Assembly (NCBI GenBank): GCA_034433515.1
Contig: DAOUAL010000065.1
Coordinates: 6,688-70,687 of the forward strand
Length of the DNA: 64,000 bases
Reading direction: 5' to 3'
Origin: Anaerolineae bacterium
GTDB lineage: Bacteria; Chloroflexota; Anaerolineae; UBA4142
Of the stretch, positions 6,843 through 60,010 are shown in pieces. The notes under the pieces are model-generated. The model was not told the origin of the DNA, searched no databases, and saw nothing but the letters and a program-made list of their open reading frames with translations. The position numbers were made by a program, and so were the translations under genes. Every line of letters starts with the position of its first letter. Position 1 is the first letter of the stretch.

Positions 6843-7127
6843 ATGGCTCACGCCATTCTCTTGCACGAACCGAACGACGATGTAGGGGTGGCTGTTCGGG
6901 ACCTGAAGAAAGGCGAATCCGTTGGCGCGGTGACGCTCGAAGGGAAATTCGTCGCCGATGTGAAACTCGTTGACGATGTGCCGCTTGGGCACAAGGTCGC
7001 AATGAAAGATATGGCGCCCGGCAAGGATGTGATCGAGTACAATCGGGTCATTGGTGTGGCTACGCAAGCTGTGCTGCGTGGCTCGCACGTGCACACGCAC
7101 AATCTTAGAACCAAGAGGTGGAAATAA
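6843..7127 (+). CDS. UxaA-family sugar-acid dehydratase, small N-terminal (SAF-domain) subunit
   Basis: 94 aa; [14 protein letters not shown]...PLGHKVA...HVHTHN pattern of altronate/galactarate dehydratase N-domain; RBS AAGGAGG. Confidence 0.8.
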
Positions 7128-8293
7128 TGATCAAGCCCCAAGACCTTAAACTGACCGGCTATCGGCGTCCTGATGGACGCTTTGGCGCACGCAATCATGT
7201 CCTCATCATCCCGGTAGATGACATTTCGAACGCCGCTGCGGAAGGCGTGGCGCGTCTCATCAAGGGGACGATGGCGCTGCCGCATCCGTACGGTCGCTTG
7301 CAATTCGGCGCAGATTTGGAGTTGACGTTCCGCACGCTCGCGGGCCAAGGTCGCAATCCGAACTGTGCGGCAGCAATCGTCATCGGCATCGAGCCGAATT
7401 GGACCGAACGCATCGTCAAAGAAATTGCCAAGACCGGCAAGCCGGTCGCAGGATTCAGCATTGAACGTGCCGGCGATCTGAAAACAATCGAAGCCGCGGC
7501 ACGCAAGGCAAAAGACTTGGTTCAGTATGCTACGGAACTCCAGCGCGAACCGTTCACGGTCAAGGACCTGGTAATGTCCACCAAGTGTGGTGAATCGGAC
7601 ACGACTTCGGGACTCGCCTCGAACCCGACGGTGGGGCGTGTGTTTGAACGACTGGCGGACGCAGGCGCTAAATTGATCTTTGGCGAGACGACCGAGGTGA
7701 CCGGCGGCGAAGACATCATTATGGAAAAATGTGTCACGCCAGAAATCGCCGCGCAGTTCAAAGCCGCGTTCGACGATTATCAACATCTCATCGAAAGTCA
7801 AGGCGTGTCATTGTTGGGGTCGCAACCCACCGAAGGAAATATTCGTGGGGGACTCACCACCATCGAAGAAAAAGCGTTGGGCAACATCCAAAAAGCCGGG
7901 CGCTGCACGATTGTGGATTTTTTGAAACCGGCAGAAGAACCGCGCAAACCGGGGTTGTCGTTTATGGACTCGTCGTCTGCCGCCGCTGAAATGGTGACGC
8001 TGTGTGCCGCCGCCGGTTCCATCGTCCACTTTTTTACAACCGGGCAAGGTAATGTCATCGGCAATCCGGTGATTCCGGTGATCAAGTTGTCCGCGAACCC
8101 ACTCACCGTTGCGACGATGTCGGAGCACATTGATGTTGATTTGACCGCGATGCTCCGCATTGAAATGACTCTCGATCAAGCGGCAGACGCCGCACTGTTG
8201 ATGCTCGAAAAAACGATCAACGGTCGCCTGACGGCGGCTGAAGTGTTGCGGCACGACGAGTTTGTGTTGACCAAACTGTATCGCAGCGCATAG
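7127..8293 (+). CDS. UxaA-family sugar-acid dehydratase, large subunit
   Basis: ORF 7118..8293; ATG 7127 overlaps stop of small subunit (TAATG); [31 protein letters not shown] typical of UxaA C domain. Confidence 0.8.
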
Positions 8294-8303
8294 TGCGAAC
8301 CAA

Positions 8304-8341
8304 GACCGAGGACGGATGACCGCATAAATCTGTCCTCGGTC
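8304..8341. other. Intergenic hairpin (10-bp perfect stem GACCGAGGAC/GTCCTCGGTC, 18-nt loop)
   Basis: Read directly between uxaA-like and larA-like genes. Confidence 0.5.
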
Positions 8342-8353
8342 AAGATTCTTCAA

Positions 8354-9601
8354 ATGACCGTATATCAAATTCCGTACGGCAAAACCCAAATCGAATGTGC
8401 GATTCCCGATTCGTTTGAGGTTCAAGTTCTGAAACCAGCGCCAATTCCGCCGGCAACCGATCCGATGCGCGCGGTGTACGATGCCATTGATGCGTCGGAC
8501 TTGGCCGATTTCAAACAGGCAAACGCGGTGGCGATTGCAATCAACGACAAGACGCGCCCGGTGCCGCTGGAAATTTTGGTGCCGCCGCTCTTGCGACGCC
8601 TCCGCGAAATCGGCATTGCCGACAACGCGATCACGTTTATCGTTGCCGTTGGCACGCACGCACCGATGGCAGAAAAAGAATTTGCTGATTTGCTTCCGCC
8701 GGAAATTCTTGCACGCTATCACGTCGTCACGCATGATGGCGATGATAGTGCAAATCTGATGTATTTGGGCAACACATCGCGCGGGACGCCAGTGTGGTGC
8801 AATAAAATCTTTGCTCAAGCCGATTTGCGAATTTCAATCGGCAATCTGGAGCCGCATCAGTTCGTTGGATTTTCCGGCGGTGTCAAAACGGCGGCAATCG
8901 GGTTGGCGGGACGCGAAACAGTGACGCACAATCATTCGATGATGCTTGACCCGCGTGCGAATATCGCACGCTATGACGATAACCCGGTGCGGCAGGACAT
9001 CGAAGAGATCGGCAAGATGATGGGCGTGCATTTCGCGTTGAACGCGGTCATCAACGAGAACAAGCAAATCGTCGCGGTGCTGGCGGGCGATCCGCGCGGG
9101 GTGATGCAGCGCGGGATTCCAATCGTTCTCGATTTGTATCAAGTGAAGGTTGATGCGCCATTCGATTTGGTGATCACGTCGCCGGGCGGACATCCCAAAG
9201 ACATCAATCTATATCAAGCGCAAAAAGCGTTAGCGCACGCAACGTTCGTTACAAAAGAAAATGGCACGGTGATTTTGTGCGCCGCGTGTCCCGAGGGCAC
9301 GGGCAGTAAACATTATGAAGACTGGATCGCCGATAAAACCTCGCACGCGCAAGTGCTCGAAACGTTCAAACGCGAAGGGTATCGTCTTGGCGCGCACAAG
9401 GCGTTTCAAATTTCGCGCGATGCCTCACGCGAGCGCGTGTTGTTCGTAACAACGATGAAGCCGGATTTGGTGCGGCAATTGTTGTTAACGCTGTTGGCCA
9501 GTCTTGATGATGCACTATCGGTTGCGCTGCGCGATTTGCCGGCGAATGCACGCATCGGCATTCTGCCATACGCGAATACGACGATTCCGATGTTGAGGTA
9601 A
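8354..9601 (+). CDS. larA: LarA-family nickel-pincer-dependent 2-hydroxyacid racemase/epimerase (DUF2088)
   Basis: 415 aa; INDKTRPVP, AVGTHAPM, SPGGHPKDINLYQAQKAL motifs characteristic of LarA. Confidence 0.8.
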   Translation: MTVYQIPYGKTQIECAIPDSFEVQVLKPAPIPPATDPMRAVYDAIDASDLADFKQANAVAIAINDKTRPVPLEILVPPLLRRLREIGIADNAITFIVAVGTHAPMAEKEFADLLPPEILARYHVVTHDGDDSANLMYLGNTSRGTPVWCNKIFAQADLRISIGNLEPHQFVGFSGGVKTAAIGLAGRETVTHNHSMMLDPRANIARYDDNPVRQDIEEIGKMMGVHFALNAVINENKQIVAVLAGDPRGVMQRGIPIVLDLYQVKVDAPFDLVITSPGGHPKDINLYQAQKALAHATFVTKENGTVILCAACPEGTGSKHYEDWIADKTSHAQVLETFKREGYRLGAHKAFQISRDASRERVLFVTTMKPDLVRQLLLTLLASLDDALSVALRDLPANARIGILPYANTTIPMLR

Positions 9602-9616: not shown

Positions 9617-9650
9617 AAAAAAAGAGCGGAGAGAAGATTTCTCTCCGCTC
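9617..9650 (-). terminator. Rho-independent terminator after hdrA-like gene (possibly bidirectional with larA)
   Basis: GAGCGGAGAGAA-GAT-TTCTCTCCGCTC, 12-bp stem; followed on minus strand by a 7-U tract (plus-strand A7 at 9617-9623). Confidence 0.75.
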
Positions 9651-9660
9651 AAATGTTAAG

Positions 9661-11685
9661 TTATGCTGGCACCGGCTCGGCGGCTTCTGCCTCGATATGT
9701 TCGGCGCCATTGCCCCACGTGCCCAAAATGCCTTCGATCTGCGCCAAGATTTGTGTGTTGGTAAAGTGAGAGCCGGTGATCGCGCCCGCCGGACACGCCG
9801 CGACGCACGTCCCGCAACCTTGACACAATGCCGGGTTGACCTCGCTCACCTTGCGATCTTCGATGAAGGTGATCGCGTTGAACGGGCACAGACTGTTGCA
9901 AATGCGACAACCCGAGCATTTCGCTTGATCGACACTGGCGCGGACCGGTTCCAACGTAACTTGCTTTTGACCGATCAGACCCAACACCCGCGCCGCCGCC
10001 GCCGCTCCTTGGGCGACGGAAGAGGGAATATCCTTGGGACCCTGACACACACCCGCGATGAAAATGCCTTCGGTCATCGTAGCGACTGGATCGAGTTTGG
10101 GGTGGCGTTCGATAAACCAACCATTCGCGCTACACGAGATACCAAATTTCTTGGCGACCTCCTTGGAATCGGCGCGTGGTTGCATCGCGGCAGACAGAAT
10201 GACCATATCTACCGGCACCCGCAACTGTCTGCCGGCTAAGGTGTCTTCAACCTGAATGATCAACTTGCCTTCTTCGCCGGGAAAGCGCGGCGCATCGGTT
10301 ACCTCCGCGACTTTGCCACGAATGAAATGCACGCCTTCGTCGAGAACGCGGCGATAAAATTCATCATAGGTTTTGCCCGGCGTACGAATGTCAATGTAAA
10401 AGTTGTACACCTTGGCGCCGGTCTTTTCCTTGACCAAGTGAGCAAATTTTAGACTTTGCATACAACAAATCGCCGAGCAATCTACATTGTATTTAATATC
10501 GCGGCTGCCAACGCAATGGATGATGCCAACGGTCTGTGGCACGGTTACACCATCGCGCAAAACGATTTTGCCACCGGTGGGTCCCGCCGTGTTCGATAAT
10601 CGCTCGAATTCCAAATTCGTGATCACGTTTGCGAGGCGTCCATAGCCGTAATGCGGAATGCGGCGCGCGTCAAAGAGTTCATAGCCGGTCGCTAGAATCA
10701 CATTGCCCACTTGAACGGTGAGCATTTCGTCTTGTTGATTGAAATCAATCGCGCCGGTCGGACAGAATTTTTCGCACGCTTTGCACGTACCACGTTGAAA
10801 GTAAATACAGTTGGCGACATCAATCACCGGATATTTGGGGACGGCTTGCGGGAACGGGGTATAAATGGCTTTGCGTGTGCCCATGCCAACTTCGAACACG
10901 GTATCAATTACTTTTTTGGGGCATTTTTCTTCGCAGACGCCGCAACCGGTGCATTTCTCGGTGTTCACCTTGCGCGCCTTTTTGCGAATCTGCACGGTGA
11001 AATTGCCGACACAACCATCCACCTTTTCAACTTCGCTCCACGTGAGCAAGGTGATGTTGGGATGGGTGCCTGCGGTGAACATCTTGGGCGTGAGAATACA
11101 CGCGGCGCAATCGAGCGTGGGAAATGTTTTATCGAACTGCGCCATATGTCCGCCAATCGAAGGTTCGCGTTCGACGAGATAGACATGACTGCCTTGATCC
11201 GCGATTTCCAACGCGGCTTGAATCCCGGCGATGCCACCCCCCACGATCAGTACGTTGGGATTGATGTCCACGATGATCGGCTCGAGGGGTTGATGATGCA
11301 CCACGCGGCGCACGCCGCCGGCGATCAAGGCTTTGGCTTTTTCGGTGGCAAGGGCTTTGTCTTTGGTGACCCAGGAGACTTGCTCGCGAATCGAAACCAT
11401 TTCGAACAAGTACGGGTTTAGCCCGGCGCGTTTGCACGCATTGCGGAACGTCAATTCGTGCAGGTGCGGTGAGCACGCCGCGACGACGATGCGCGTCAAT
11501 CCCAAATCCTTGATGTCTTTTTCGATGATCTCTTGACCGGGGCTGGAGCACATAAACTTGTACTCGCGGGCTACGCGCACATCGGGCAAATTGTCCTCTG
11601 CCCATTTGGCAACGTCAACAACATCAACCACGCCGGCAATGTTGCTCCCACAATGACAAACATAGACGCCAACTTTTTCTGCCAT
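9661..11685 (-). CDS. hdrA: HdrA-like FAD/FeS flavoprotein (heterodisulfide reductase subunit A paralog 1)
   Basis: MAEKVGVYVCHCGSNIAG, GGGIAGIQAALE, HCVGSRD, C-terminal 2x CX2CX2CX3CP; ATG 11685 preceded by GGAGGA. The longer ORF to 11769 only translates a repeat array. Confidence 0.85.
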   Translation of the reverse strand: MAEKVGVYVCHCGSNIAGVVDVVDVAKWAEDNLPDVRVAREYKFMCSSPGQEIIEKDIKDLGLTRIVVAACSPHLHELTFRNACKRAGLNPYLFEMVSIREQVSWVTKDKALATEKAKALIAGGVRRVVHHQPLEPIIVDINPNVLIVGGGIAGIQAALEIADQGSHVYLVEREPSIGGHMAQFDKTFPTLDCAACILTPKMFTAGTHPNITLLTWSEVEKVDGCVGNFTVQIRKKARKVNTEKCTGCGVCEEKCPKKVIDTVFEVGMGTRKAIYTPFPQAVPKYPVIDVANCIYFQRGTCKACEKFCPTGAIDFNQQDEMLTVQVGNVILATGYELFDARRIPHYGYGRLANVITNLEFERLSNTAGPTGGKIVLRDGVTVPQTVGIIHCVGSRDIKYNVDCSAICCMQSLKFAHLVKEKTGAKVYNFYIDIRTPGKTYDEFYRRVLDEGVHFIRGKVAEVTDAPRFPGEEGKLIIQVEDTLAGRQLRVPVDMVILSAAMQPRADSKEVAKKFGISCSANGWFIERHPKLDPVATMTEGIFIAGVCQGPKDIPSSVAQGAAAAARVLGLIGQKQVTLEPVRASVDQAKCSGCRICNSLCPFNAITFIEDRKVSEVNPALCQGCGTCVAACPAGAITGSHFTNTQILAQIEGILGTWGNGAEHIEAEAAEPVPA

Positions 11686-11696
11686 ATTTCCTCCAA

Positions 11697-11768
11697 GACA
11701 GTGGTCAGTAGTCGGTGGACAGTGGTCAGTTTCCTGTTCACTGACCACTATCCACTGTCCCCTGTCCA
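11697..11768. repeat. Heptamer-periodic array with inverted halves (CAGTGGT.. then CACTGAC..); core hairpin 11717-11753
   Basis: GGACAGTGGTCAG / CTGACCACTATCC pair with 1 mismatch; fills the spacer between the membrane FeS gene and hdrA. Confidence 0.8.
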
Positions 11769-13718
11769 CTACAATGCTTCATTCACCAACTCGATTAAAT
11801 CTTTCACGACCAACCGCGCTTCGCTGCCGGTCGTTTTGACCGCATCGCGGAACAGGGTTACATCTTTGGGGCACGCGGTCACAAAAACCGATACCGTATC
11901 TAGGGTGAGCGCCTCACGAATGCGCGCTTCGCTGGGCCGTTCTTTGACCGTGCCTTCCTCCATCCAAATACGTCCGCCGCCGGCTCCGCAACACAGCGCG
12001 CGATCACCGTGCCGTGGCATCTCGACGAGCCGACAACCGGTCGCTTCGATCACGCGGCGCGGCGCATCGTAGATTCCGTTGTACCGACCGAGATAGCAGG
12101 GATCGTGATAGGTAACGGTGTAAGGGAGTTTCTTGCTGAATTTCAATTTGCCTGAAGTAATCAGCGTGTCCAACAACTCGGCGTAATGCCAGACCTCATT
12201 TGTTATGCGTGGATATTCATGTCTCAACGTGTTGTACGTGTGTGGATCGGTGGTAACAATCGTTTTGAAATTTGCCTTGCTCATCGCCTCCATATTTTTC
12301 TCGACGAGCATTTCAAAGAGACCTTCTTCGCCCACGCGGCGCACATCGTTGCCGGCATTGCGCTCGCCTTCGTACAAAATTCCAAAATCGAGTCCGGCTT
12401 TTTGGAACACGTGCGCAGTCTGGCGCGTGATTTCGATGACGCTGGGACTGTACGATGCATAATCGCCAACGAACCACAGGTACTCGACCGGCTCTTTGCG
12501 TGCATCTTTAATCTTGGGCAGCACCGGTTGTGCCCACTTGGCGCGATTGCGTTCCGATTGTCCAAACGAGTTGCCATAGCGTCCCAGTTTGGCGAGCGCG
12601 TCTTGGAGCATTTCGTCCATTCGCCCTTCGCTGACCAAATAGCGGCGCATATCCACAATCGCTTTGACGCGCTGGATAAACAGTGGGCATTCCTGATCGC
12701 AGGCGTAACACGTGGTACACGACCACAATACTTGCTCCGAGACTACCTCCGGAATTAAGGTTTGCGTTTGGGGTGCTGTGAGATGTTCGCGCAGATTCAT
12801 CATCAATAATTTAGGCGAGAGTGGCAGACCACTGTTGTACGCCGGGCAGACATCTTGACACCGACCGCATTCGGTACACGTGTAGAAATCGAGCATCTGC
12901 CGCCAACGAAATTGATTGACCGTACTCACGCCCACTTTGCCATCAAACTCTGGTGATTTGGGTAAACGACCCGGCGGCGTGAGATCGCGCAGAAAAACGG
13001 CAGGCACCGAGGTAACGATATGAAAATGTTTGCCTGCCGGTAATTCGGTGAGGAAAAAGAGGACAACCCCCAAATGAATCCAGTACGCGATTTCGCCGAC
13101 GATGAATTGCGCGTTGATGTCCAGTGTTGCAAATGGCAAACCGACCAACATCGAAATGGGCCGCCATGCCGCTAATGTATCCTTGCCTAGATTGATGTTG
13201 ATGCCGTTGAATACGAGCAGACTTAGCATAATTGTCATGATGAACGACAAGACCATAATGCCCTGGTTTTTGTGACTGCCCCTGTAGCGTTCGGGATTGA
13301 CGATGATGCGTAGATACAAGGCATAGGTTACGGCGATGATGACAAACAGCGCAAAGAAATCTTGAATTAGTGCGAGCAGACCCCACTCGCCGATGATCGG
13401 TAACTTGAAATGCGGATCAATGAATGCCAACAACCCTTCGGCGATGGCTTGCAGGATAGTGAGCGAGAGCAGGATGAATCCCCAAAAGATGAAAAAGTGT
13501 GCGATGCCGGGAATGCGGACTCGAAACAAGCGGAGTTGACCGGCGACATAGGCGATTACACCTTTGATGCGCTCGCCCCATTGACCAAATGCTTCTGGGC
13601 TGGGTTGTCCACGTCGTAGATTGATCCACAACAAGCGATAGACGCGCCAACCAAACACGCCGCCAGCGAGTAACAATCCGATCAAGACAAGCAGACTTTT
13701 GATCATCTCATAGTTCAT
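11769..13718 (-). CDS. Membrane-bound FeS oxidoreductase: 5-6 TM His-containing domain fused to HdrD/DsrK-like module (2x[4Fe-4S] + 2 CCG)
   Basis: 649 aa; CTECGRCQDVCP, CTTCYACDQECP, HDPCYLGR, CCGAGGG; hydrophobic N-terminal third; RBS GGAGAG. Confidence 0.8.
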   Translation of the reverse strand: MNYEMIKSLLVLIGLLLAGGVFGWRVYRLLWINLRRGQPSPEAFGQWGERIKGVIAYVAGQLRLFRVRIPGIAHFFIFWGFILLSLTILQAIAEGLLAFIDPHFKLPIIGEWGLLALIQDFFALFVIIAVTYALYLRIIVNPERYRGSHKNQGIMVLSFIMTIMLSLLVFNGININLGKDTLAAWRPISMLVGLPFATLDINAQFIVGEIAYWIHLGVVLFFLTELPAGKHFHIVTSVPAVFLRDLTPPGRLPKSPEFDGKVGVSTVNQFRWRQMLDFYTCTECGRCQDVCPAYNSGLPLSPKLLMMNLREHLTAPQTQTLIPEVVSEQVLWSCTTCYACDQECPLFIQRVKAIVDMRRYLVSEGRMDEMLQDALAKLGRYGNSFGQSERNRAKWAQPVLPKIKDARKEPVEYLWFVGDYASYSPSVIEITRQTAHVFQKAGLDFGILYEGERNAGNDVRRVGEEGLFEMLVEKNMEAMSKANFKTIVTTDPHTYNTLRHEYPRITNEVWHYAELLDTLITSGKLKFSKKLPYTVTYHDPCYLGRYNGIYDAPRRVIEATGCRLVEMPRHGDRALCCGAGGGRIWMEEGTVKERPSEARIREALTLDTVSVFVTACPKDVTLFRDAVKTTGSEARLVVKDLIELVNEAL

Positions 13719-13738
13719 CGGAACTCTCCGTTCGTATC

Positions 13739-13801
13739 GGGGGCGAAGGACAGGTGCACGCTTTGCCCGACCACTCTAGCGAAGAAAGTTCCTTCGCCCC
13801 C
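13739..13801. other. Intercistronic hairpin, 12-bp perfect GC-rich arms (GGGGGCGAAGGA/TCCTTCGCCCCC), 39-nt loop
   Basis: Read directly between etfA stop and membrane FeS gene start. Confidence 0.6.
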
Positions 13802-13810
13802 ATGCCCTCG

Positions 13811-14782
13811 TCATCCCTTCGCTTGTTGCACCTTCTCTGTCAGCACGGGTAACAAATCCAGCATATCAATAGACGCGCCGAACTTGGCGAGATCGAAAAT
13901 GGGTGCGCTGGTGTCGGTGTTGACCGCGATGATCAGTTCGCTATCGCCGATGGCTTCGGTATGTTCGGGTGCGCCGCTGATGCCCAGCGCGAGATACAAT
14001 TTGGGTTTGACCGCTTTGCCGGACTTGCCAACCAGCCGCGTCGGCGCGAGCCAACCTTGATCAATCACCGGGCGCGAGGCGCAAACGACGCCACCCAACG
14101 CACGCGCTAATTCTTCCGCTAGTTCGATATTGTCTTGATTCTGAATACCACGCCCAATCGAAACCAAGATGGGTTCGCGCGCAATATCCACATCGCCTAC
14201 CGCCGGCTCGATATACTCTGTGACCGAGACGTGCAAATCGTCGAGTGTGGGTGCATCGAGGCGGACAAGTTCCGGCGATTGTGCGGCACGCCCTTGTTCC
14301 GGTTTGTAGCCGCCCGGTACCATCATCACCAGTGCCGATGGTGCGGGCAGATCGCCTTCTGCCAACAGTTTGCCACCGCAAATTTGGCTGACGAATTTGA
14401 GTGCTGTACCTTCGGCGCGTACGGTGCGGCACGCGCTAACCAACGGCAGACCCAAACGCGTCGAGAGCCACGCCGCCACATCGCCGCCAATGGTTGTATC
14501 GCCGAACAAGACCGCGCGCGGCGCGTGTTCTTTGAGCACGGTTTCCAAGGTGCGTTGGTACGCGTCCGACGAAAAATCGGCGAATGCGGGATGCTCGATG
14601 TACCACACCTGGTCTGCGGCGAGATCGGATGCCAATGGTTCAACATCGTGTCCCAACAACAGGGCGATGACCTTGCCGCCGGTCACGTTTGCCATCGCTC
14701 GTGCCGCCGCCAGCATCACGTACGAAATATCCATCACTTGTCTGCGCAAGTGTTCGATGACAACGCAAATATCTGGGTTCAT
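13811..14782 (-). CDS. etfA: Electron transfer flavoprotein alpha subunit
   Basis: C-terminal LYLALGISGAPEHTEAI..AVNTD..APIF FAD-binding motif; ATG 14782 preceded by AGGAG. Confidence 0.9.
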   Translation of the reverse strand: MNPDICVVIEHLRRQVMDISYVMLAAARAMANVTGGKVIALLLGHDVEPLASDLAADQVWYIEHPAFADFSSDAYQRTLETVLKEHAPRAVLFGDTTIGGDVAAWLSTRLGLPLVSACRTVRAEGTALKFVSQICGGKLLAEGDLPAPSALVMMVPGGYKPEQGRAAQSPELVRLDAPTLDDLHVSVTEYIEPAVGDVDIAREPILVSIGRGIQNQDNIELAEELARALGGVVCASRPVIDQGWLAPTRLVGKSGKAVKPKLYLALGISGAPEHTEAIGDSELIIAVNTDTSAPIFDLAKFGASIDMLDLLPVLTEKVQQAKG

Positions 14783-14815
14783 TGTTTCTCCTCTCAAAGT
14801 ATGAAAATTCCAACT

Positions 14816-15580
14816 TTACAGCACGCCGTGTTCCTTGAAAATTTCTACCAACCGCGTTGCCACCGTGTCGGCGTCGCCTTCGATCATCGTGGCGCGCGTG
14901 CTGACTTGAGGCTGGAACAATCGCACCGCGAGTGGCGCACCGGCAGTTTCCAATTCCATCGCCGGGAATTTTTCAAGGGTGGCACTTTTCATGGTCGCAC
15001 GGATTTTGCTGATGGGAACATAGCGCGGTGGTTTTTCGGCGGCTTGGATGCCCAGGACGGCTGGCAACATCACTTGCATTTCCGCGATCAAGCCGCCGGG
15101 AAATTCTTTGCGAATCTGGACGCTACCATCACAGACTATCACGCCGGAAACGTATCCGACATACGGCAGACCCAGATGCTCTGCCAGTTGCGGACCGACT
15201 GCGCCATCCAGATCGTTGTGGGCTTGGACGCCGGTGAGAATGAGTTCAGGGCGCAGGGTTTTGATAAAGTTGGCAAAGACACGTGCCAAGGCATGATTGT
15301 TCACTCCACGTTGCCAATTCCCAGTGAGTTTGACCAGCCGATCCGCACCTTTGGCAGCAGCGGTGAACAACACCTCATCAATACCTTCGATGTCTGGTGC
15401 AACAACCGTTACCGTGCCTGTGCCTTTCTCTTTGAGCAGAATCGCTTGTTCGATAGCGTGATCATCAAACTCGTTGAGTTTCAAGCGTAATGCGTCAGAG
15501 TCGAGTTTGGTGCCGCTGGCATCAATGACCAGTTCTTCAACGAGATCGGGAACCATCTTGATGGGGACGACTAGATTCAT
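14816..15580 (-). CDS. etfB: Electron transfer flavoprotein beta subunit
   Basis: MNLVVPIKMVPD.. typical EtfB N-terminus. ATG 15580 follows GAAGAGG. The upstream ORF extension only translates the octamer array. Confidence 0.9.
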   Translation of the reverse strand: MNLVVPIKMVPDLVEELVIDASGTKLDSDALRLKLNEFDDHAIEQAILLKEKGTGTVTVVAPDIEGIDEVLFTAAAKGADRLVKLTGNWQRGVNNHALARVFANFIKTLRPELILTGVQAHNDLDGAVGPQLAEHLGLPYVGYVSGVIVCDGSVQIRKEFPGGLIAEMQVMLPAVLGIQAAEKPPRYVPISKIRATMKSATLEKFPAMELETAGAPLAVRLFQPQVSTRATMIEGDADTVATRLVEIFKEHGVL

Positions 15581-15597
15581 CGTTATACCTCTTCGAG

Positions 15598-15725
15598 TTT
15601 CATCGTTGGGTCGTTGCATCGTTAGATCGTTGGGTCGTTGTATCGTTGCATCGTTAGATTGTTGCCTCCTTTGCCACGAGGTTGAACGAATCAACGCTGT
15701 AACGAACCGACGATGCAACGATTCG
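15598..15725. repeat. Octamer-periodic array (nnnTCGTT x8) followed by its inverse (nnCAACGn x5)
   Basis: Read directly; TCGTTGCATCGT (15611-15622 and 15643-15654) is the exact complement of ACGATGCAACGA (15710-15721). Confidence 0.85.
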
Positions 15726-15726
15726 C

Positions 15727-16926
15727 TTATCCGATAGACTCGGCTAACAATTCAACAATGTCGCGCACTTCCATCCCGCTTGCTTCGCGCACGGTCTTGA
15801 CCGCATCTTCAAAACGAGGTGGCTCGTACGGACACGCGACCACGAGGGTGGTTGCTTCTACGGCAATTGCTTCGCGGACGCGCCACTCTGAAGTTCGCGT
15901 GTGCGCCTTTTCCCAATGGAAACCTTCCAGCCACATACCGCCACCACCGCCGCCACAACACAAACTGGTTTCGCGCGTGTGCGACATTTCAACAAGGGTA
16001 ATGCCAGGAATGGCTTGCAACAGACGGCGGGGCTCGTCGTAAACCTTGTTGGCGCGACCCAAGTAACACGGATCGTGAAAAGTAATTTTGCCAGTCTCGA
16101 CCGGCTTGAGCATGGGCTGGAGTTGATCGAGGCGTTCGACTAGAAACTGGGTCACGTGGCGGACGGGATAAGTGATGTCGAGTGTGGGATAGACGTTTTT
16201 GAACGCGTTGAACGCGTGTGGATCCGTAGTGATGATTTCGTTGAAACTGTACTTGCGGAAGGCTTGCCCATTCTTGGTGGCGAGCATTTCAAATAAACCG
16301 CGTTCACCGGCAAGTCGTTGCGAATCACCGTCACCGACTTCTTCTGGACCCAGAATGGCAAAATCTACCTTGAGCGCGTTAAGAATCTTTGCCAAGGCAC
16401 GGCTGGTGGCTTGAACGCGTGGATGGTACGAAGCATAATCACCAACATACCACAACACGTCTGCCGATTTCTTGTCCTTGCCGAAAATGGGGACGGTGGC
16501 TTGGAGGCCCTTGGTCCAGTCCGCACGTTTGCGGGGCGATTGACCCAGGACATTGCCATAGCGTTGCGAGTTTTCGAGCGCGAGTTGGAGTTCGGCGGGG
16601 ACTTGGGCGGCGAGGAGCATTTCTTCTTTGGCGCGCGTCATTAATTTCTCGGTGAGCGGAATGCCGGACGGGCAGACTTCGGTGCAGGCGTAACACGCGA
16701 CGCACATCCAAACGGTGTCCGTTTTCATCACGCGATCAAAAATTTCGGAACGCAAGGCGGCGATCATGCGCCCCGGCGGATAATCCATCACATAACCAAA
16801 GGGACACACCCCGCTACACATACCGCATTGCAAACACATGCGGATGCGTTCGCCGGTGGGCGGGGTTTGCAGACTGGTGTAGAACGCCTCGTTGAACGAA
16901 GGATTGGTTAGCGTAGGAATCGTCAT
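15727..16926 (-). CDS. Soluble HdrD/GlcF/DsrK-like FeS protein (2x[4Fe-4S] + 2 CCG domains)
   Basis: CLQCGMCSGVCP, CVACYACTEVCP, HDPCYLGR, CCGGGGG; clear paralog of residues ~270-649 of the 11769-13718 product; RBS GAGGAGG. Confidence 0.8.
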   Translation of the reverse strand: MTIPTLTNPSFNEAFYTSLQTPPTGERIRMCLQCGMCSGVCPFGYVMDYPPGRMIAALRSEIFDRVMKTDTVWMCVACYACTEVCPSGIPLTEKLMTRAKEEMLLAAQVPAELQLALENSQRYGNVLGQSPRKRADWTKGLQATVPIFGKDKKSADVLWYVGDYASYHPRVQATSRALAKILNALKVDFAILGPEEVGDGDSQRLAGERGLFEMLATKNGQAFRKYSFNEIITTDPHAFNAFKNVYPTLDITYPVRHVTQFLVERLDQLQPMLKPVETGKITFHDPCYLGRANKVYDEPRRLLQAIPGITLVEMSHTRETSLCCGGGGGGMWLEGFHWEKAHTRTSEWRVREAIAVEATTLVVACPYEPPRFEDAVKTVREASGMEVRDIVELLAESIG

Positions 16927-16938
16927 CTAAAAACCTCC

Positions 16939-17148
16939 TCAATTGCGCTCGAGCGAATCGGTTGAGTTACTTGAGCAAAGGTAGATAGAACTACGGCCGC
17001 CGGCAGTGTGGCGGTAGGGATGGGGTGGGGGCAAAACGATGGCAAGGGTTGGCGTGGGGGTTGGTGTGGCAACGGGAGCGCAGGCAACGCCAATGCAGGC
17101 GATCAGTACAGCACAGCCCAAAACGCACAGGCGCAGGGTGTTGCGCAT
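16939..17148 (-). CDS. Small putative lipoprotein (69 aa)
   Basis: MRNTLRLCVLGCAVLIAC: signal peptide with lipobox-like LIAC, then TPTPTP linker. RBS GGAGGTG is 7 nt upstream. Its stop overlaps the RBS of the next gene. No recognised family. Confidence 0.35.
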   Translation of the reverse strand: MRNTLRLCVLGCAVLIACIGVACAPVATPTPTPTLAIVLPPPHPYRHTAGGRSSIYLCSSNSTDSLERN

Positions 17149-17294
17149 ATATCCCACCTCCCTTGGGAAAAACCATTTCCCATCTATAGTTTACAATGTT
17201 TGGTGTGGCACGACCATACGGGACGGAGGGTATTTTTGAAATACTCTGCGCATGGTAGGGGGAAACTAGGAGGAAACAATAAGCGGGGTGACGG

Positions 17295-17942
17295 TTAGGC
17301 TTTGACAATGCCCGCGCGAATGGCGTACTTGATTAATTCAGCGGTGTTGTGCACGCCAAGTTTTTCCATAATGTTGCTGCGATGCGTGTCCACCGTTTTG
17401 ACGCTGATTCCCAGACGGTCGGCAATCTCGCGGTTGATCAACCCTTCGGCGATGAGTTGCACGATTTGAATCTCGCGGTCCGTCAGCATGGGTGAGGGTT
17501 GGCTGGCTTTGGCGGATTCGGCGAGTGCGTTGACGAGCGCAGAGGTAATACTGGGTTGCAGATAAGCACCGTGTTCATACACGGTGCGAATCGCGGTGGT
17601 CAGTTCGTTGGCGCGTGCATCCTTGGTAATGTAGCCGACCGCGCCGGCATGCAAGAGCGGCAAGATATATTCCTTGTTCTCGTGTTGGGTCAAGACCAGA
17701 ATGCGCGTCAAAGGGGATCGGGCGTGAATCTCGCGCGTTGCGTCCAAGCCATTCATTCCCGGCATCGCAATATCCATCAACACAACGTCTGGCTTGAGCC
17801 GAAGGACCGCCTCAATGGCATGCTTGCCATCTGCCGCTTCGCCGACCACTTGCATATCTTCGCGGCGCGCGAGCAAGGCGCAAATCCCTTCGCGTACAAT
17901 GGCGTGATCATCCACCACGAGAACACGAATCGGTTGTGCCAT
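17295..17942 (-). CDS. NarL/LuxR-family response regulator (REC + HTH)
   Basis: VLVVDDH..DVVLMDIAMPGMNG receiver; C-terminal LTDREIQIV..GL.NREIA..L.IS.KTV.THR LuxR HTH. Confidence 0.9.
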   Translation of the reverse strand: MAQPIRVLVVDDHAIVREGICALLARREDMQVVGEAADGKHAIEAVLRLKPDVVLMDIAMPGMNGLDATREIHARSPLTRILVLTQHENKEYILPLLHAGAVGYITKDARANELTTAIRTVYEHGAYLQPSITSALVNALAESAKASQPSPMLTDREIQIVQLIAEGLINREIADRLGISVKTVDTHRSNIMEKLGVHNTAELIKYAIRAGIVKA

Positions 17943-17943: not shown

Positions 17944-19860
17944 TCATCCTCCTCCGCGATCTGGTGTTGGGATAGGTACGCTCAAATGAACGGTGGTGCC
18001 TTCGCGCAGAATCGAAGAAATATTCACAGTGCCACCGATGGCGCTCATCCGCTCTTTCATACCAACGATTCCCAAACCGCGTTGGCTATCGGTCAAGACG
18101 AGGTTTGGATCAAATCCTTTACCATTGTCCTTGATCCAAACTTGAACCTGGGTGGGTTCAAACGCAATGGTGAGTTCGGCGCGCGTTGCCCGTGAGTGTT
18201 GTGCAATATTGTTGATGGCTTCTTGCACCACACGAAACAGGGCTGTCTCGATGGGAGGCGGCAAACGGCGCGGTTCACCAATTTGATGAATCGTGGGACG
18301 AATGCCTAATCCATTCAAGCGTCTGTCGGCATACCAACCGATTGCCGGGATCAAACCTAGGTGATCAAGCATCGTGGGGCGCAGATCCAGAATCATCCGC
18401 CGAATTTCTTTGAGTGCGGTTGTGGTGAGTTCGTGCATGCGCTCCAACTGCGGTTTGAGATTAGCCGAGGGCGGTGCTTCGGCGGCATTGTCGAGAGCGT
18501 ATGCCAAACCGGTCAGGATCTGGCACGTTTCATCGTGGAGTTCGCGTGAGATCCGTTTGCGTTCTTCCTCTTGCGCCGTGAACACCCGATTCAGCAATTC
18601 GCGCCGGATTTGTTCCTTGCTTTGCAGTTCCTCGTACAGTTGCCGGATTTCGGCGGTGGCGCGTTCGCAGGCGGCGGTCCGCTCACGGACGCGCGCATCG
18701 AGTTCGCGATTCCAATTTTGGATTTCGGAGATGGATGCTTTGAGACGCACCCGCATGGCATCGAAGGATTGCGCCAATTTGCCAATTTCATCTTTGCCTT
18801 GGATCCCCAAGGGGGTGTCCAGATCACCGGCGGTAATCCGTTGCGTGGCGGCGGTCAATGCTTGAACGGGCGTGATGACACTCCGCGTGGTCAAATAGAC
18901 CAACCCGAGCGCGCCGGCAAGCATAATGATCATCAAGCCAAAGATGCGCATCTGTAATTGATGGATCGAGGCGAACACCTCATCTTCGCTTTGATGAACG
19001 GTAACCCCCCACTGCGCCCGTTCGAGCGGTGCCAAGGCGATGATTTCCCGAGTGCGCTGTGGGGAGGCAGAGTAGTGACAACGGTGGCAGGTGGATACGG
19101 TTTGGCGTTGCTCGCGAATCAGCGTGGCAAGATTGCCGTTGTGATCATTGTGCGTGCCGATACGTTCACTCTGCGTGCTCGCCAGGATGATGCCATCCAA
19201 ATCAACCAAATCAATGTAACCGGTTGCGCCTAGTCCGATGGGTTGCGTGAAGGTTCGCAAGTTGGGCTTGTTCAGATCAATGCTGATGACCAGCACACCG
19301 GTCACCTGCCCGTCTGCAGCGCGAATCGGTGCGGCGGCAAGGACAGCAGTGGTATTGGCATCAAGCGTGTGCAGATAGGGCGAGACGGCAAAATTGCGCC
19401 CATTGAGGACGGCTTGGATTGTGGGGCATTCAGCAAAGGAGAGCGAAGCGGGCAGGGGAGGATAAGTGGCGATGAGTTGTCCGGTCGGATCGAGCAGAAA
19501 AAGGTGGGTGGCATAGAGGCGCAGGCGTTGGAAAGCATCGGCAAGTTTTTCCATCGTGTGCGGCTGATCGAGTGCGTTGAACTGGGCAGCCGTGTACAGC
19601 ATCACATCCTCGACACTGCCGAGGATGTAATCAATGTGACGCGCCGTGCTTTGTGCCAAGACCAAGCGTTCTTGCAGAGTGCGTTGATTATTTTCGTCGA
19701 GTGCGGTGGTGCCCAGGTACGCAAACAAGCCCACGAGGGAAAGCGTGCCAATCACAACCAGCGTTGCCATCTTGGCACCCAGTCCCACGCTGGACCACAA
19801 TTGCGAGAGCGGGCGCATCAAGAAGGCTTCCCACTCTTGTGCGATGATCCGCCAGCGCAT
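17944..19860 (-). CDS. Sensor histidine kinase (2 TM, ~250-aa extracytoplasmic domain with CXXCH, HAMP, HisKA_3, HATPase)
   Basis: TM at ~31-50 and ~305-325; H-box RISRELHDETCQ; N/G boxes EAINNIAQH, DNGKGF, GLGIVGM; RBS GGAGGG. Confidence 0.9.
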   Translation of the reverse strand: MRWRIIAQEWEAFLMRPLSQLWSSVGLGAKMATLVVIGTLSLVGLFAYLGTTALDENNQRTLQERLVLAQSTARHIDYILGSVEDVMLYTAAQFNALDQPHTMEKLADAFQRLRLYATHLFLLDPTGQLIATYPPLPASLSFAECPTIQAVLNGRNFAVSPYLHTLDANTTAVLAAAPIRAADGQVTGVLVISIDLNKPNLRTFTQPIGLGATGYIDLVDLDGIILASTQSERIGTHNDHNGNLATLIREQRQTVSTCHRCHYSASPQRTREIIALAPLERAQWGVTVHQSEDEVFASIHQLQMRIFGLMIIMLAGALGLVYLTTRSVITPVQALTAATQRITAGDLDTPLGIQGKDEIGKLAQSFDAMRVRLKASISEIQNWNRELDARVRERTAACERATAEIRQLYEELQSKEQIRRELLNRVFTAQEEERKRISRELHDETCQILTGLAYALDNAAEAPPSANLKPQLERMHELTTTALKEIRRMILDLRPTMLDHLGLIPAIGWYADRRLNGLGIRPTIHQIGEPRRLPPPIETALFRVVQEAINNIAQHSRATRAELTIAFEPTQVQVWIKDNGKGFDPNLVLTDSQRGLGIVGMKERMSAIGGTVNISSILREGTTVHLSVPIPTPDRGGG

Positions 19861-19887: not shown

Positions 19888-20721
19888 TCAGCGAGAGGGT
19901 AAGTTGTGATGAGGCAAGGGCTGACCGAACAGATTCTGGGTCAACATGAGGTTGCGTTCAACGACCAGCAAGCGTTCAAGTTGATATTGGTCCAAGGTCC
20001 AAAGGTGTTTGCCGCACACCGTGCATTGACAGAGCAGATAACCTGGCATGTCAGTCGCCAAATAGGTCAATTGGTCTGGTTCGTCTGTGCCGCAAAACGA
20101 ACAGGTCAATCGCCAATAACTCCATTCCAAGTCGCACCGCGAGCACAAGAGTTTGCGTTCGCCGGTTTTCTTCTCGAGCGCGGCAAAATCGGGCGCGCCG
20201 CCGCACAGAGGGCAAAAGGGATGATACCACATACTATTGTCCACATAGCCGCCGAGCAGTCGGGCATATTTGCGGAGGGTGGGATGGAGGGCTTGATTGA
20301 AAACAAAGGCGAGGAGCGCGCGTGGCAGACCGGCTTGCTCCCCTTGCGGGACCACCCCCTTGTCCCAATAACTCTTGACGCAAGTGATCAAGTGTTGGTG
20401 TTCTTGGCATAGCCAATCTCGGATGGCTTCGAGCGTGGAGGCATAATGAGGAAAATGTTTGGCGGTAATGATGCAGACCTGATGACACAAGATCGTAAAG
20501 GTCAAGGGGTAGAGTGTGAATTCATTCCACTGTAAAATAGGTTGACCGGCTCTCAAGCGTGCCGCCGCATCTTGGGCTTGGCGCTCATAATCACAGTAGC
20601 GGGGCGCGGTGCGGGCTTGGATGTTTAGCAGGGCTAACCAGTACGCAACCAGATGACCAAGGTGCGGTTGCAGCACAGCTTGGTTCTGCAATGCCTCCCG
20701 GATTCTGTCATAGCCCACCAT
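19888..20721 (-). CDS. FdhE-like protein (four CXXC motifs)
   Basis: CPLCGG, CSRCDLEW, CSFCGT, CTVCGK in the spacing typical of FdhE C-terminal half. Confidence 0.65.
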   Translation of the reverse strand: MVGYDRIREALQNQAVLQPHLGHLVAYWLALLNIQARTAPRYCDYERQAQDAAARLRAGQPILQWNEFTLYPLTFTILCHQVCIITAKHFPHYASTLEAIRDWLCQEHQHLITCVKSYWDKGVVPQGEQAGLPRALLAFVFNQALHPTLRKYARLLGGYVDNSMWYHPFCPLCGGAPDFAALEKKTGERKLLCSRCDLEWSYWRLTCSFCGTDEPDQLTYLATDMPGYLLCQCTVCGKHLWTLDQYQLERLLVVERNLMLTQNLFGQPLPHHNLPSR

Positions 20722-20729: not shown

Positions 20730-21191
20730 TTAGGCAGTTTGGCGTGCGGCGGCTAACTCCACGCGTGCAAAATGCAGACGTTCCAAAGCGATGGATGCGA
20801 CTTGGCGCATCAAGTTATAGCCCATTTTGGAGTCAATCTCGCAGAGGGCGCGCAAGGCAGGCGCGTCCACTTTGAGAATGCGACTAGGGCTTGCCACGCG
20901 TGCGGTCGCCGTCAGGGTGTAAGGTTCAATCAACGCCGAGATGCTAAAGGCTTCCCCTACATTGACTTCACCCACCAGGAACTCTTCACGCGCATCGCCG
21001 CTGGCGGCATAATAGAGGTCAATGTTCCCGTCCATCAACAAGTACAACGCTTCAACCGGTTGACCTTCGCGGAAGAGGACGGTGCCGGTATCGGCAAAAA
21101 TTTCTTCCGACACCATTGCAATCGCTTTTTGCTGATCCTCGTTGAGACAGCAAAAAAAGGGATAGCGGCGCAGTACTTCGGGGGAGATCAT
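20730..21191 (-). CDS. Stand-alone CAP/cNMP-binding-like effector domain protein (no HTH)
   Basis: 153 aa; LRRYPFF...LFREGQPVEALYLLMDG...GEAFSISALI beta-barrel pattern; ATGA overlap with protease gene. Confidence 0.75.
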   Translation of the reverse strand: MISPEVLRRYPFFCCLNEDQQKAIAMVSEEIFADTGTVLFREGQPVEALYLLMDGNIDLYYAASGDAREEFLVGEVNVGEAFSISALIEPYTLTATARVASPSRILKVDAPALRALCEIDSKMGYNLMRQVASIALERLHFARVELAAARQTA

Positions 21192-21667
21192 TTTCCGGCT
21201 CCTTCCTTGTGATCGAGTTGTTGTAGAACGAGTTGAACGGCATGCGGGACGGCAGCGGCAATGGCTGGCGACAACGTTTCCGAAAAATCGTACACGGCTT
21301 GCGCTTCGATGGCAACGATTTCGATTTGGTGTGGCAAAACCGCACCCATCCGGCGTCCCACCTGGATCGCTGTTTGCAAGGTGGTCTCGTGCGCCGAAGC
21401 GAGATGACTCGTGGCATCGTTGGGCAAATCTTCTAAGCGAAAATAACTCACGGTGCCCGGCGGCGCGCGCCCGGTCTTGATCGCATCTATGATGATGGTG
21501 CGATCATAGCCGATGAGACGTTCCATCAAACTCAAGCCGCCGCCGGCATGAAAATCTATTTCGATGGTTGGGTCGGCGATTTGATCGCGGACGCGCTCAG
21601 CAACCCGCCAGCCCACGCCATCATCGCCGAGTAGTGGATTACCTAGACCCAGTACGAGTGTACGCAT
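21188..21667 (-). CDS. [NiFe]-hydrogenase maturation endopeptidase (HycI/HoxW/FrhD family)
   Basis: MRTLVLGLGNPLLGDDGVG..; GGLSLME..; alternative upstream start at 21688. Confidence 0.8.
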   Translation of the reverse strand: MRTLVLGLGNPLLGDDGVGWRVAERVRDQIADPTIEIDFHAGGGLSLMERLIGYDRTIIIDAIKTGRAPPGTVSYFRLEDLPNDATSHLASAHETTLQTAIQVGRRMGAVLPHQIEIVAIEAQAVYDFSETLSPAIAAAVPHAVQLVLQQLDHKEGAGK

Positions 21668-21668
21668 C

Positions 21669-22124: not shown

Positions 22125-22149
22125 TTTTCAACTCCCCAAGCCAAGCGCG

Positions 22150-22184
22150 GAGGAACAGATGAACGCGACATTCATCTGTCCCTC
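22150..22184. other. Intercistronic hairpin after mvhA (14-bp stem, 1 mismatch, 7-nt loop)
   Basis: GAGGAACAGATGAA-CGCGACA-TTCATCTGTCCCTC read directly; no U-tract. Confidence 0.55.
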
Positions 22185-22195
22185 CTCGCCTTTGC

Positions 22196-23662: not shown

Positions 23663-23664
23663 AA

Positions 23665-25148: not shown

Positions 25149-25186
25149 TTTTCCCTCGTTTGTTCAGATGGAAGAGGGCAAGTCGT

Positions 25187-25246
25187 GACGCGGGAGCAGT
25201 CTGGGAGATGCGGACCCTCGTCAGTAGCGCATGCTACTCCCGCGTC
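25187..25246. other. Intercistronic hairpin (10-bp perfect arms GACGCGGGAG/CTCCCGCGTC, nested AGTAGC/GCTACT stem)
   Basis: Read directly between hdrA stop and mvhD start. Confidence 0.55.
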
Positions 25247-25251
25247 CTCCT

Positions 25252-27279: not shown

Positions 27280-27280
27280 T

Positions 27281-60000: not shown

Positions 60001-60010
60001 GCGAGGAATT

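Follow-up and report, generated by a model that had tools for sequence, protein, structure and literature searches.

An etfBA operon of an Anaerolineae bacterium encodes an EMO homologue, an HdrB3-like protein and a full-length HdrA: a possible link between bifurcating hydrogenase and menaquinone

Introduction

Many bacteria that presumably lack both CoM (coenzyme M) and CoB (coenzyme B) carry HdrABC/MvhADG-type genes. To our knowledge, the substrates of these bacterial enzymes are largely unknown beyond the DsrC and methylene-tetrahydrofolate (THF) cases. The question of what they feed is raised by a 64,000-nucleotide stretch of an Anaerolineae genome assembly (GCA_034433515.1, contig DAOUAL010000065.1, positions 6,688 to 70,687; hereafter the window, in whose own numbering all coordinates are given). 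On its minus strand lies an operon that encodes an electron-transfer flavoprotein (ETF), a homologue of the membrane-bound ETF:menaquinone oxidoreductase (EMO), a soluble iron-sulfur protein with a CCG domain (sCCG) and a full-length HdrA. What does HdrA do at the end of an etf operon, and where would its electrons go? We propose, at a probability of about one half, that the HdrB3-like soluble protein, ETF and EMO form an output module that carries the high-potential electrons of an Mvh-HdrA bifurcating hydrogenase to menaquinone.

Organisation of the operon

The operon was described in a first-pass annotation made from the sequence, which listed six minus-strand open reading frames (ORFs), their Shine-Dalgarno sites, the cysteine motifs and a terminator. 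All of these were found where it had placed them (Table 1), and its CCG, ETF and HdrA assignments were matched by Pfam and NCBIfam. From the small ORF to hdrA, the gaps between genes measure 12, 146, 33, 92 and 83 nt, and every start is preceded by a GGAG/GAGG-type ribosome-binding site. The terminator (9650-9624) folds at -21 kcal/mol (z -6.7). For comparison, 95 loci were collected from a genome collection, an alignment-based metagenome scan and contigs encoding named homologues. The window proteins were mapped by tblastn on the first 92 of these, while called genes were used for L093-L095.

One of the six ORFs is a doubtful gene. A putative 69-aa lipoprotein had been placed at the head of the unit, and this ORF has no family match in the Pfam or NCBIfam scans. 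It was found only in a contig of the same species (L004), tblastn being blank in all other loci, and non-synonymous changes are many in the L004 copy, which also has an indel that shifts the frame. Upstream of the ORF, 146 nt of non-coding DNA are 100% identical between the window and L004, the ORF itself being the most divergent part of the region. Owing to this lack of conservation, the 69-aa ORF was ruled out as a member of the conserved unit and falls outside the module discussed below.

Table 1. Features of the etf operon and of related genes in the window
Feature	Coordinates	Strand	Evidence or remark
69-aa ORF (72 aa with start at 17157)	16939-17148/17157	-	signal-peptide/lipobox-like N-terminus; doubtful gene
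Soluble CCG protein (sCCG), 399 aa	15727-16926	-	Pfam Fer4 and CCG
sCCG-etfB spacer	15581-15726	-	octamer repeats, stable RNA fold
EtfB, 254 aa from ATG	14816-15580	-	PF01012
EtfA, 323 aa	13811-14782	-	PF01012 and PF00766 (FAD-binding ETF_alpha); matches to solved structures
Membrane CCG protein (TM-CCG/EMO), 649 aa	11769-13718	-	Pfam Fer4 and CCG; match to PDB 9OJN
EMO-hdrA spacer hairpin	11686-11768	-	predicted RNA fold
HdrA (paralogue HdrA_etf), 674 aa from ATG	9661-11685	-	NCBIfam HdrA2, 814 bits
Intrinsic terminator closing the operon	9624-9650	-	12-bp GC-rich hairpin, then T7
LuxR-type response regulator (RR1)	17295-17942	-	Pfam
dCache/HAMP/HisKA_3 sensor kinase (HK1)	17944-19860	-	Pfam
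HycI	21188-21688	-	Pfam/NCBIfam
cNMP-binding protein	21669-22124	-	Pfam/NCBIfam
MvhA	22196-23662	-	group 3c L1/L2 motifs
MvhG	23665-~24650	-	Pfam/NCBIfam
MvhD	24657-25148	-	Pfam/NCBIfam
HdrA_mvh	25252-27279	-	Pfam/NCBIfam
HdrB	27281-28261	-	10 canonical Cys
HdrC	28258-28875	-	Pfam/NCBIfam
Acyl-CoA dehydrogenase	58858-60000	+	
EtfB2	60282-61058	+	
EtfA2	61060-62040	+	

The membrane protein is an EMO homologue

EMO has been characterised biochemically and structurally (bioRxiv 10.64898/2026.08.18.745454; PMC13083937). ETF docks on its CCG/NCB domain, and the flavin adenine dinucleotide (FAD) of ETF reaches the non-cubane clusters (10.64898/2026.08.18.745454). Judged by its alignment and ligand residues, the 649-aa membrane protein is a homologue of the EMO-family ETF:menaquinone oxidoreductases (EMO/EtfD/FadF/DgcB), of a subtype predicted to lack the distal cluster. 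Residues 11-634 align with EtfD/EMO of M. smegmatis (PDB 9OJN, E 3.6e-110), membrane domain included, the transmembrane (TM) region aligning with 9OJN residues 10-336. As in Syntrophus aciditrophicus SaEMO and M. smegmatis EtfD, one polypeptide combines a 5-TM NarI-like domain, an HdrC-like domain bearing two cubane clusters and an HdrB-like CCG/NCB domain, and its gene adjoins etfB-etfA, both here and in nearly all related loci. This end-to-end alignment upholds the earlier suggestion that an ETF beside a membrane FeS/CCG protein marks an ETF:menaquinone oxidoreductase. The soluble paralogue and HdrA are additions, missing from the Syntrophus and mycobacterial systems.

A His-bearing membrane domain of five to six helices had been predicted. 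We detected five hydrophobic segments of the NarI-like cytochrome b type, and the predicted heme ligands H74, H215 and H233 are kept in 139, 130 and 140, respectively, of 140 family representatives at 50% identity. The two CX2CX2CX3C cubane motifs (C281/284/287/291 and C334/337/340/344) are invariant in all 140. At the proximal non-cubane site C541, C576, C577 and C616 are conserved together with H493, whereas in this subfamily Asp replaces the fifth cysteine, the last one in the C-terminal CxxC. Counterparts of the three heme-ligand His and of the proximal cluster's capping His have been described in SaEMO and MsEMO. In contrast, all cysteines of the distal cluster (FeS4/D1) are gone from the N-terminal CCG half (D419/N454/A455/D491/T494). 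The resulting pattern, D-N-x-D-x...CCCC-D, occurs in about 35-40 of the 140 representatives, about a quarter, and marks a FadF/DgcB-like subtype (PMC13083937). The SaEMO paper terms the distal cluster site variable, and FadF and DgcB have already been reported without the distal-cluster cysteines (PMC13083937), so the loss is not new and was dropped as a novelty.

The operon ETF is probably a plain carrier

Bit scores to solved ETFs did not classify the operon ETF, as EtfA scored equally against bifurcating and non-bifurcating structures. The best solved match of EtfB is the non-bifurcating ETF beta of M. methylotrophus (1O94, 103 bits), and two stretches common to the bifurcating EtfB structures 5OL2, 4KPU and 6FAH, DRAFxGADTxATS and GRQAIDGDTAQVG, are both missing from it. 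In their place it has GNWQRGVNNHALA and GVQAHNDLDGAVG, without the GADTxATS and DGDTAQVG shared by the three bifurcating structures; this comparison comprises five pairwise alignments to few references and is indicative. Because these motifs are missing, we read the operon ETF as probably non-bifurcating, an AMP-binding carrier with one FAD. EMO's partner in Syntrophus is likewise a one-FAD carrier.

The window encodes a second ETF next to an acyl-CoA dehydrogenase. EtfB2 is only 30% identical to the operon EtfB and has a housekeeping, non-bifurcating look, so the genome would seem to have one ETF for β-oxidation and another for the Hdr/EMO module. When the neighbouring ORFs were all clustered without bias, no acyl-CoA or other dehydrogenase recurred beside Hdr-linked clusters. 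Given this result and the separate set at 58858-62040, the syntrophic fatty-acid framing of the first-pass annotation has no specific support.

Another flavoenzyme of the window may be relevant to the ETF. At 31788-34334 (-), just upstream of a paralogous sensor kinase/response regulator pair (HK2/RR2) and hdrCBA, lies a gene for a GlcD-like FAD-linked oxidase of 848 aa; its C-terminal ~400 residues gave no Pfam match at E <= 0.001. GlcD-type dehydrogenases are known ETF donors, and the oxidase is a candidate input to ETF.

The soluble CCG protein is HdrB3-like

Both CCG proteins had been described as HdrD/DsrK-like paralogues. The paralogy is clear (37% identity over 379 residues, E 7e-76), as are the CCG motifs. 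Nevertheless, sCCG is not simply a second HdrD. It consists of an HdrC-like domain with two [4Fe-4S] clusters fused to an HdrB-like CCG domain with one non-cubane site. Among solved structures it matches EtfD best, in the cytoplasmic part (9OJN, 193 bits), with HdrC next at ~50 bits (51), and it is closer to HdrC (E 1e-17) than the membrane protein is (E 5e-8). By sequence it is in effect the cytoplasmic domain of EMO minus the membrane part. The cysteines of its N-terminal CCG motif are replaced by D/G/D/D/A and the His of DPH is kept; by analogy with EMO, this capping His suggests electron transfer rather than catalysis.

The closest described counterpart is sHdrB3, an HdrC2-HdrB2 fusion able to bind only one non-cubane cluster (PMC11094781). 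In type II clusters (shdrC1B1AHB3-etfAB-emo), it has been suggested that EtfAB and EMO pass electrons on to menaquinone (PMC11094781). Neighbour joining placed the sHdr-linked B3 proteins in one clade and the window sCCG in its sister clade, which contains all hydrogenase/HdrA-linked copies.

The presence of sCCG follows that of HdrA-type genes. It was present in about 30 loci with HdrA or sHdr genes and in 1 locus without them, and absent from 0 loci with and about 11 loci without; only assessable loci were counted and these are mutually related, hence the counts are descriptive. The pattern holds across four cluster architectures. Considering that sCCG is the more HdrC-like of the two CCG proteins, that it tracks HdrA-type genes and that B3 has been proposed to replace HdrC2B2 in sHdr, it is likelier than EMO to be the HdrC substitute.

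A full-length HdrA and a companion hydrogenase cluster

The last gene of the operon had been called an HdrA-like flavoprotein, and the NCBIfam HdrA2 match identifies it as a full-length HdrA. Residues 4-654 match HdrA of M. thermolithotrophicus (5ODC) with 675 bits. Every domain of the archaeal bifurcating HdrA is there: the N-terminal domain, the FAD domain, and the inserted and C-terminal ferredoxin domains. The paralogue HdrA_mvh, 13 kb upstream in the window, is 74% identical to HdrA_etf, with corresponding Cys positions. Orthologues of HdrA_etf in L004, L005 and L012 are 90-99% identical (90-92% in L005 and L012) and form a clade of their own, whereas HdrA_mvh branches with the HdrA proteins that other Anaerolineae encode in HdrCBA-Mvh clusters.

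HdrA_mvh belongs to an HdrC-HdrB-HdrA-MvhD-MvhG-MvhA-HycI cluster at 21188-28875 (-), absent from the first-pass annotation. MvhA carries the L1/L2 motifs of group 3c hydrogenases, taken from PMC6085437, and the cluster is likely the hydrogenase partner of the etf operon. The etf operon has no hdrBC genes; these accompany the other HdrA copy (27281-28875). The mvhDGA genes are not adjacent to hdrA_etf but ~10 kb upstream, at 22196-25148. Thus the etf/EMO/HdrA set first described stands, but its usual partner, the group 3c MvhDGA that directly follows HdrA in relatives, had been missed.

The two halves of the hydrogenase appear to differ in history. MvhA shares 91-93% identity with its counterpart behind HdrA_etf in L005 and L012, while MvhD and MvhG reach only 66-70%. 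The window MvhD and MvhG are no closer to L005/L012 than to distant Anaerolineae, and the window gene order is a permutation of that of L012. These sequences suggest that hdrA_etf was parted from the hydrogenase genes when recombination or a rearrangement broke the cluster between mvhG and mvhA.

Small proteins of ~150 aa with only a cyclic nucleotide monophosphate (cNMP)-binding domain, at 20730-21191 and 21669-22124 (-), flank HycI. Such proteins recur directly after the EMO gene or after mvhA in seven loci (L007, L011, L012, L015, L016, L026 and L044) and could represent a regulatory or accessory part that is conserved. A 277-aa protein encoded between the sensor kinase and the hydrogenase cluster (19888-20721, -) has a weak match to the FdhE central domain (Cys-rich, E 2e-5, under the Pfam cut-off), and only L004 gave a tblastn match to it.

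Gene order in related loci

A scan of the genome collection with a single protein gave nine loci, all from Chloroflexota, and the breadth came from the alignment-based metagenome scan. Gene order was counted in the 74 loci of the EMO subtype without the distal cluster that have >=1.1 kb downstream. A full-length HdrA starts <=110 bp past the EMO stop in 19 of them, the order EMO-sCCG-HdrA occurs in three, and in nine HdrC-HdrB-HdrA follows EMO within 5 kb, beyond ~3.6 kb of regulator genes. In most HdrA-linked loci MvhD-MvhG-MvhA comes after HdrA wherever the contig continues, directly so in L005, L012, L026, L037, L047, L094 and others. The closest species-level relatives, L005 and L012 (84-86% EMO identity), have the order HK-RR-sCCG-EtfB-EtfA-EMO-HdrA-MvhD-MvhG-MvhA. 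L043 and L087 read EMO-HdrA-HdrC-HdrB-HdrA-MvhDGA, with two HdrA copies as in this genome.

The arrangement is not confined to Chloroflexota. Homologues named at NCBI come from metagenome-assembled genomes (MAGs) of Planctomycetota, Actinomycetota, Gemmatimonadetes and Anaerolineae, and MAGs that carry the labels of three further phyla have HdrA directly after EMO, where the stop and start codons often overlap. The synteny of etf genes and hdrA that had been read from this one sequence is thus conserved elsewhere. The most compact form is that of L094 (Actinobacteria label): MarR-sCCG-EtfB-EtfA-EMO-HdrA-MvhD-MvhG-MvhA-HycI, with overlapping stop and start codons and no hdrBC. Since HdrBC is missing there, a CCG protein of the module would have to stand in for HdrC. 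In L093 and L095, hdrCB and regulator genes are interleaved among the mvh genes of the cluster.

Two further sets of loci share part of the operon. Around sCCG-EtfBA-EMO, the sHdr-like loci from the metagenome scan (L023, L052, L059, L064, L071, L072 and L074) encode an HdrB1-like protein, a ~355-aa HdrA-like protein, a 257-aa hypothetical protein and LplA-like ligases; the sHdrA-like protein of L059 matches sHdrA (6TJR) with 286 bits. DgcB-like loci (L050, L055, L058, L065, L073, L078 and L079) have the order EMO-EtfB-EtfA and the same Cys-poor EMO subtype, and sCCG is always absent. Their neighbours include TMADH/DgcA-like OYE-FAD enzymes, GcvT-like proteins, proteins like heme-dependent N-demethylase (HODM) and a predicted multi-pass membrane transporter. 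These loci look like methylated-amine catabolic islands, and the TMADH/GcvT/HODM genes were found only beside sCCG-less, DgcB-like loci.

Proposed electron path and alternatives

In the path that we propose, the group 3c [NiFe] hydrogenase MvhAGD would pass electrons from H2 to the FAD of HdrA via MvhAG and MvhD, HdrA being the putative site of bifurcation. The low-potential electron would leave through the ferredoxin domains of HdrA to ferredoxin. The high-potential electron would enter sCCG, crossing its HdrC-like clusters and lone non-cubane cluster, then reach the FAD of the non-bifurcating ETF, and from ETF run through EMO (non-cubane cluster, cubane clusters, hemes b) to menaquinone, which would be reduced. 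Menaquinone would stand in for CoM-S-S-CoB as the high-potential acceptor. Whereas this output line takes its input from sulfur chemistry in type II sHdr, here the input would be the Mvh hydrogenase. In this genome one MvhDGA set would serve both HdrA paralogues, possibly via a mixed HdrA dimer. A module coupling ETF to both quinone and a low-potential carrier, as the first-pass annotation suggested, is therefore plausible. We infer that these proteins associate physically and that sCCG, rather than EMO, would dock on HdrA.

A wider claim is more tentative, and we consider the odds to be somewhat against it: MvhAGD, HdrA, the HdrB3-like protein, EtfAB and EMO might form one membrane-attached H2:ferredoxin/menaquinone bifurcating/confurcating hydrogenase supercomplex, in Chloroflexota and in MAGs labelled Actinomycetota, Planctomycetota and Gemmatimonadota. 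Menaquinone would then be a high-potential partner of the kind long looked for in bacterial Hdr-Mvh enzymes, and ETF an obligatory single-electron relay linking the two HdrD-like proteins.

Several points weigh against the proposed path. The whole case is built on homology and gene order, and the gene-order and co-occurrence counts overstate independence, the loci being phylogenetically related. In the window a terminator, and not mvhDGA, comes after hdrA_etf, and a very stable hairpin comes before it. An ETF between two HdrD-like proteins has no mechanistic explanation. The canonical 10-Cys HdrBC of many clusters and of this genome implies an extra thiol/disulfide partner outside the model. 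No Hdr gene lies nearby in 43 of the 74 loci, among them the sHdr-like and DgcB-like sets, so the EMO/ETF pair evidently works without HdrA in other contexts.

The alternative that survives best, though we judge it unlikely, keeps the complex and turns the electrons round. ETF reduced by dehydrogenases, or by menaquinol and EMO, would feed sCCG and HdrA and, together with ferredoxin reduced in fermentation, drive H2 evolution by Mvh (confurcation), and fermentative or syntrophic Anaerolineae could in this way use H2 to dispose of electrons at mid and high potential. In principle the HdrA/Mvh chemistry can run both ways, as could the whole chain, in which ferredoxin plus ETF or menaquinol could drive H2 formation; EMO in Syntrophus operates in a reverse redox loop. 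Cultured Anaerolineae grow better alongside hydrogenotrophic partners, and genes linked to fermentation and to ferredoxin abound in the window (aldehyde:ferredoxin oxidoreductase, CoA transferases, sugar-acid enzymes). However, the conserved neighbours include no substrate dehydrogenase for the operon ETF. The cluster also occurs in MAGs labelled Actinobacteria, Gemmatimonadetes and Planctomycetota, and in one Anaerolineae locus (L001) it adjoins respiratory cytochromes; both settings sit more easily with H2 uptake. Sequence cannot decide which way the electrons flow.

It is less probable still that two independent systems merely share a neighbourhood and regulators, namely a catabolic ETF:menaquinone oxidoreductase with sCCG as an accessory and an Hdr-Mvh with its own disulfide substrate. 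The EMO family does function with ETF alone in β-oxidation and amine catabolism (DgcB/FadF and TMADH-type loci), ~3.6 kb of regulator genes part EMO from hdrCBA in nine loci, and in the window a strong hairpin precedes hdrA and a terminator comes right after it. Against this reading stand the tight adjacency and overlapping codons in widely diverged loci and in MAGs labelled as other phyla, and sCCG is missing exactly where no HdrA-type gene occurs. The HdrA of L094, without HdrBC, would have no other high-potential outlet than the CCG proteins of the module, and type II sHdr clusters show a like coupling with a different HdrA.

We consider it improbable that hdrA_etf is a recently displaced or duplicated copy without a special role, left as a relic after a rearrangement away from mvhDGA. 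The 74% identity between the two HdrA genes of the window and the unequal identities of MvhA and MvhD/MvhG to L005 and L012, which suggest recombination, are in keeping with such an origin. Yet the HdrA_etf orthologues in three loci of the genome collection are more conserved (90-99%) than the neighbouring EMO (84-86%), which suggests purifying selection, all cofactor motifs of HdrA_etf are intact, and clusters with two HdrA genes recur independently in L043 and L087.

A sulfur-oxidising type II sHdr system, with which the operon has the B3-etfAB-emo module in common and of which genuine relatives were recovered with the same query, is ruled out for practical purposes by the HdrA type (674 aa and methanogen-like, not the ~350-aa sHdrA) and by the B3 tree, in which sCCG lies outside the sHdr clade, and no sHdrH, LplA-like ligase or sHdrB1-type gene is among the annotated ORFs of the window. 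A scan of the larger window ORFs, which left aside most ORFs below ~150 aa (the size of LbpA, TusA and DsrE), found no sHdrH, sHdrC1B1, LbpA, lipoate ligase or sulfur transferases.

Spacers, regulators and other genes of the window

Two spacers of the operon are predicted to fold stably. The sCCG-etfB spacer (-45 kcal/mol, z -4.1) contains ~8 tandem NAACGAYN octamers and inverted copies, and in a scan of the window it holds 8 of the 10 matches to this pattern, against 1.3 expected. In L004 the same spacer appears different in the repeat region. The hairpin of the EMO-hdrA spacer (-38.1 kcal/mol, z -5.4) ends just before the ribosome-binding site of hdrA. Neither structure has a U-tract, and both could confer differential mRNA stability or partial attenuation. 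The etfA-EMO spacer (13719-13810, -) also forms a long GC-rich hairpin without a U-tract, although its fold is not significant (-36 kcal/mol, z -1.3); this hairpin and that before hdrA may be processing, stability or attenuation elements. The spacer repeats were considered as genome-wide elements resembling repetitive extragenic palindromes (REP), and the idea was dropped, each being confined within the window to its own spacer.

Directly upstream of the operon are genes for a sensor kinase and a LuxR-type response regulator (HK1 and RR1), its probable regulators. Such a pair likewise precedes sCCG in L004, L005, L006 and L012, and the two proteins here are 65% and 69% identical to those of the paralogous pair that precedes hdrC. 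The conserved 146-nt stretch upstream of the small ORF may carry the promoter or operator of the operon controlled by HK1/RR1. A hairpin at 17164-17182 abuts the ribosome-binding site there.

Some other genes were noted in the window. Convergent with hdrA, at 6843-9601 (+), are a split SAF plus UxaA/GarD-type sugar-acid dehydratase and a LarA-family protein, with no evident link to the operon. For the latter, the NCBIfam model of nickel-pincer malate racemase (LarAH5) gives 540 bits, above its cut-off of 462. An aldehyde:ferredoxin oxidoreductase of the tungsten-enzyme family (51317-53029, -) is a possible source of reduced ferredoxin. A DDE transposase is encoded at 56639-57412 (+).

Comparison with known systems and significance

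The nearest described relative is the type II sHdr system. There too a B3 protein with one non-cubane site, EtfAB and EMO are attached to an HdrA-family flavoprotein, with a proposed electron path to menaquinone (PMC11094781), and the B3 proteins of both kinds form sister clades. The flavoproteins differ, HdrA here being the full-length bifurcating type with ferredoxin domains and not a ~350-aa sHdrA without them (like PDB 6TJR). The partner differs as well, a [NiFe] hydrogenase here in place of sHdrC1B1/H, LbpA, lipoate ligases and sulfur transferases.

With the MvhAGD-HdrABC of hydrogenotrophic methanogens the window shares a full-length HdrA, a group 3c MvhA, MvhD, a 10-Cys HdrB and HdrC. 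However, HdrA_etf sits with the HdrB3-like protein, ETF and EMO and not with HdrBC, which relatives of the L094 type lack altogether. Unlike methanogens, the bacterial host presumably has neither CoM nor CoB.

The proposed logic is also that of EtfABCX/FixABCX, in which a mid-potential donor is split to ferredoxin and menaquinone with ETF in the chain (PMC10734219). In that system ETF itself bifurcates via a second FAD in EtfB and a flavoprotein of the ETF-QO type reduces the quinone, whereas here bifurcation would be at HdrA and an HdrDE-like protein would reduce the quinone.

The first-pass annotation knew of no characterised complex of this composition, and literature searches likewise found no characterised Etf/HdrA/Mvh complex. 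It should be added that EMO itself has been characterised and that the arrangement was noted in 2021. A preprint on the Chloroflexi supergroup (10.1101/2021.08.23.457424) remarks that genes for a group 3c hydrogenase, HdrA2B2C2, 'HdrD', ETF and 'ETF-QO' cluster in Anaerolineae and that the products might bifurcate. In its accessible text this is a brief genomic remark on the same neighbourhood, limited to that supergroup and made without the EMO and B3 homologies, the hdrBC-less variant or other phyla. Three elements were thus already known: EMO/EtfD, the B3-etfAB-emo module of sHdr and the clustering in Anaerolineae. In the literature searched, we found neither the parts identified nor the hdrBC-less HdrA-MvhDGA form described, and likewise nothing on the spread beyond Chloroflexota, the sister relation to sHdrB3 or the hypothesis of menaquinone as high-potential acceptor.

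The gene set may show what bacterial 'heterodisulfide reductases' feed, namely the quinone pool via ETF. If the proposed path is true, flavin-based bifurcation from H2 would be tied directly to respiration, and the output module of type II sHdr would reach into hydrogen metabolism as well. There would then be an explanation for what group 3c hydrogenases do in Anaerolineae and in other widespread uncultured bacteria.

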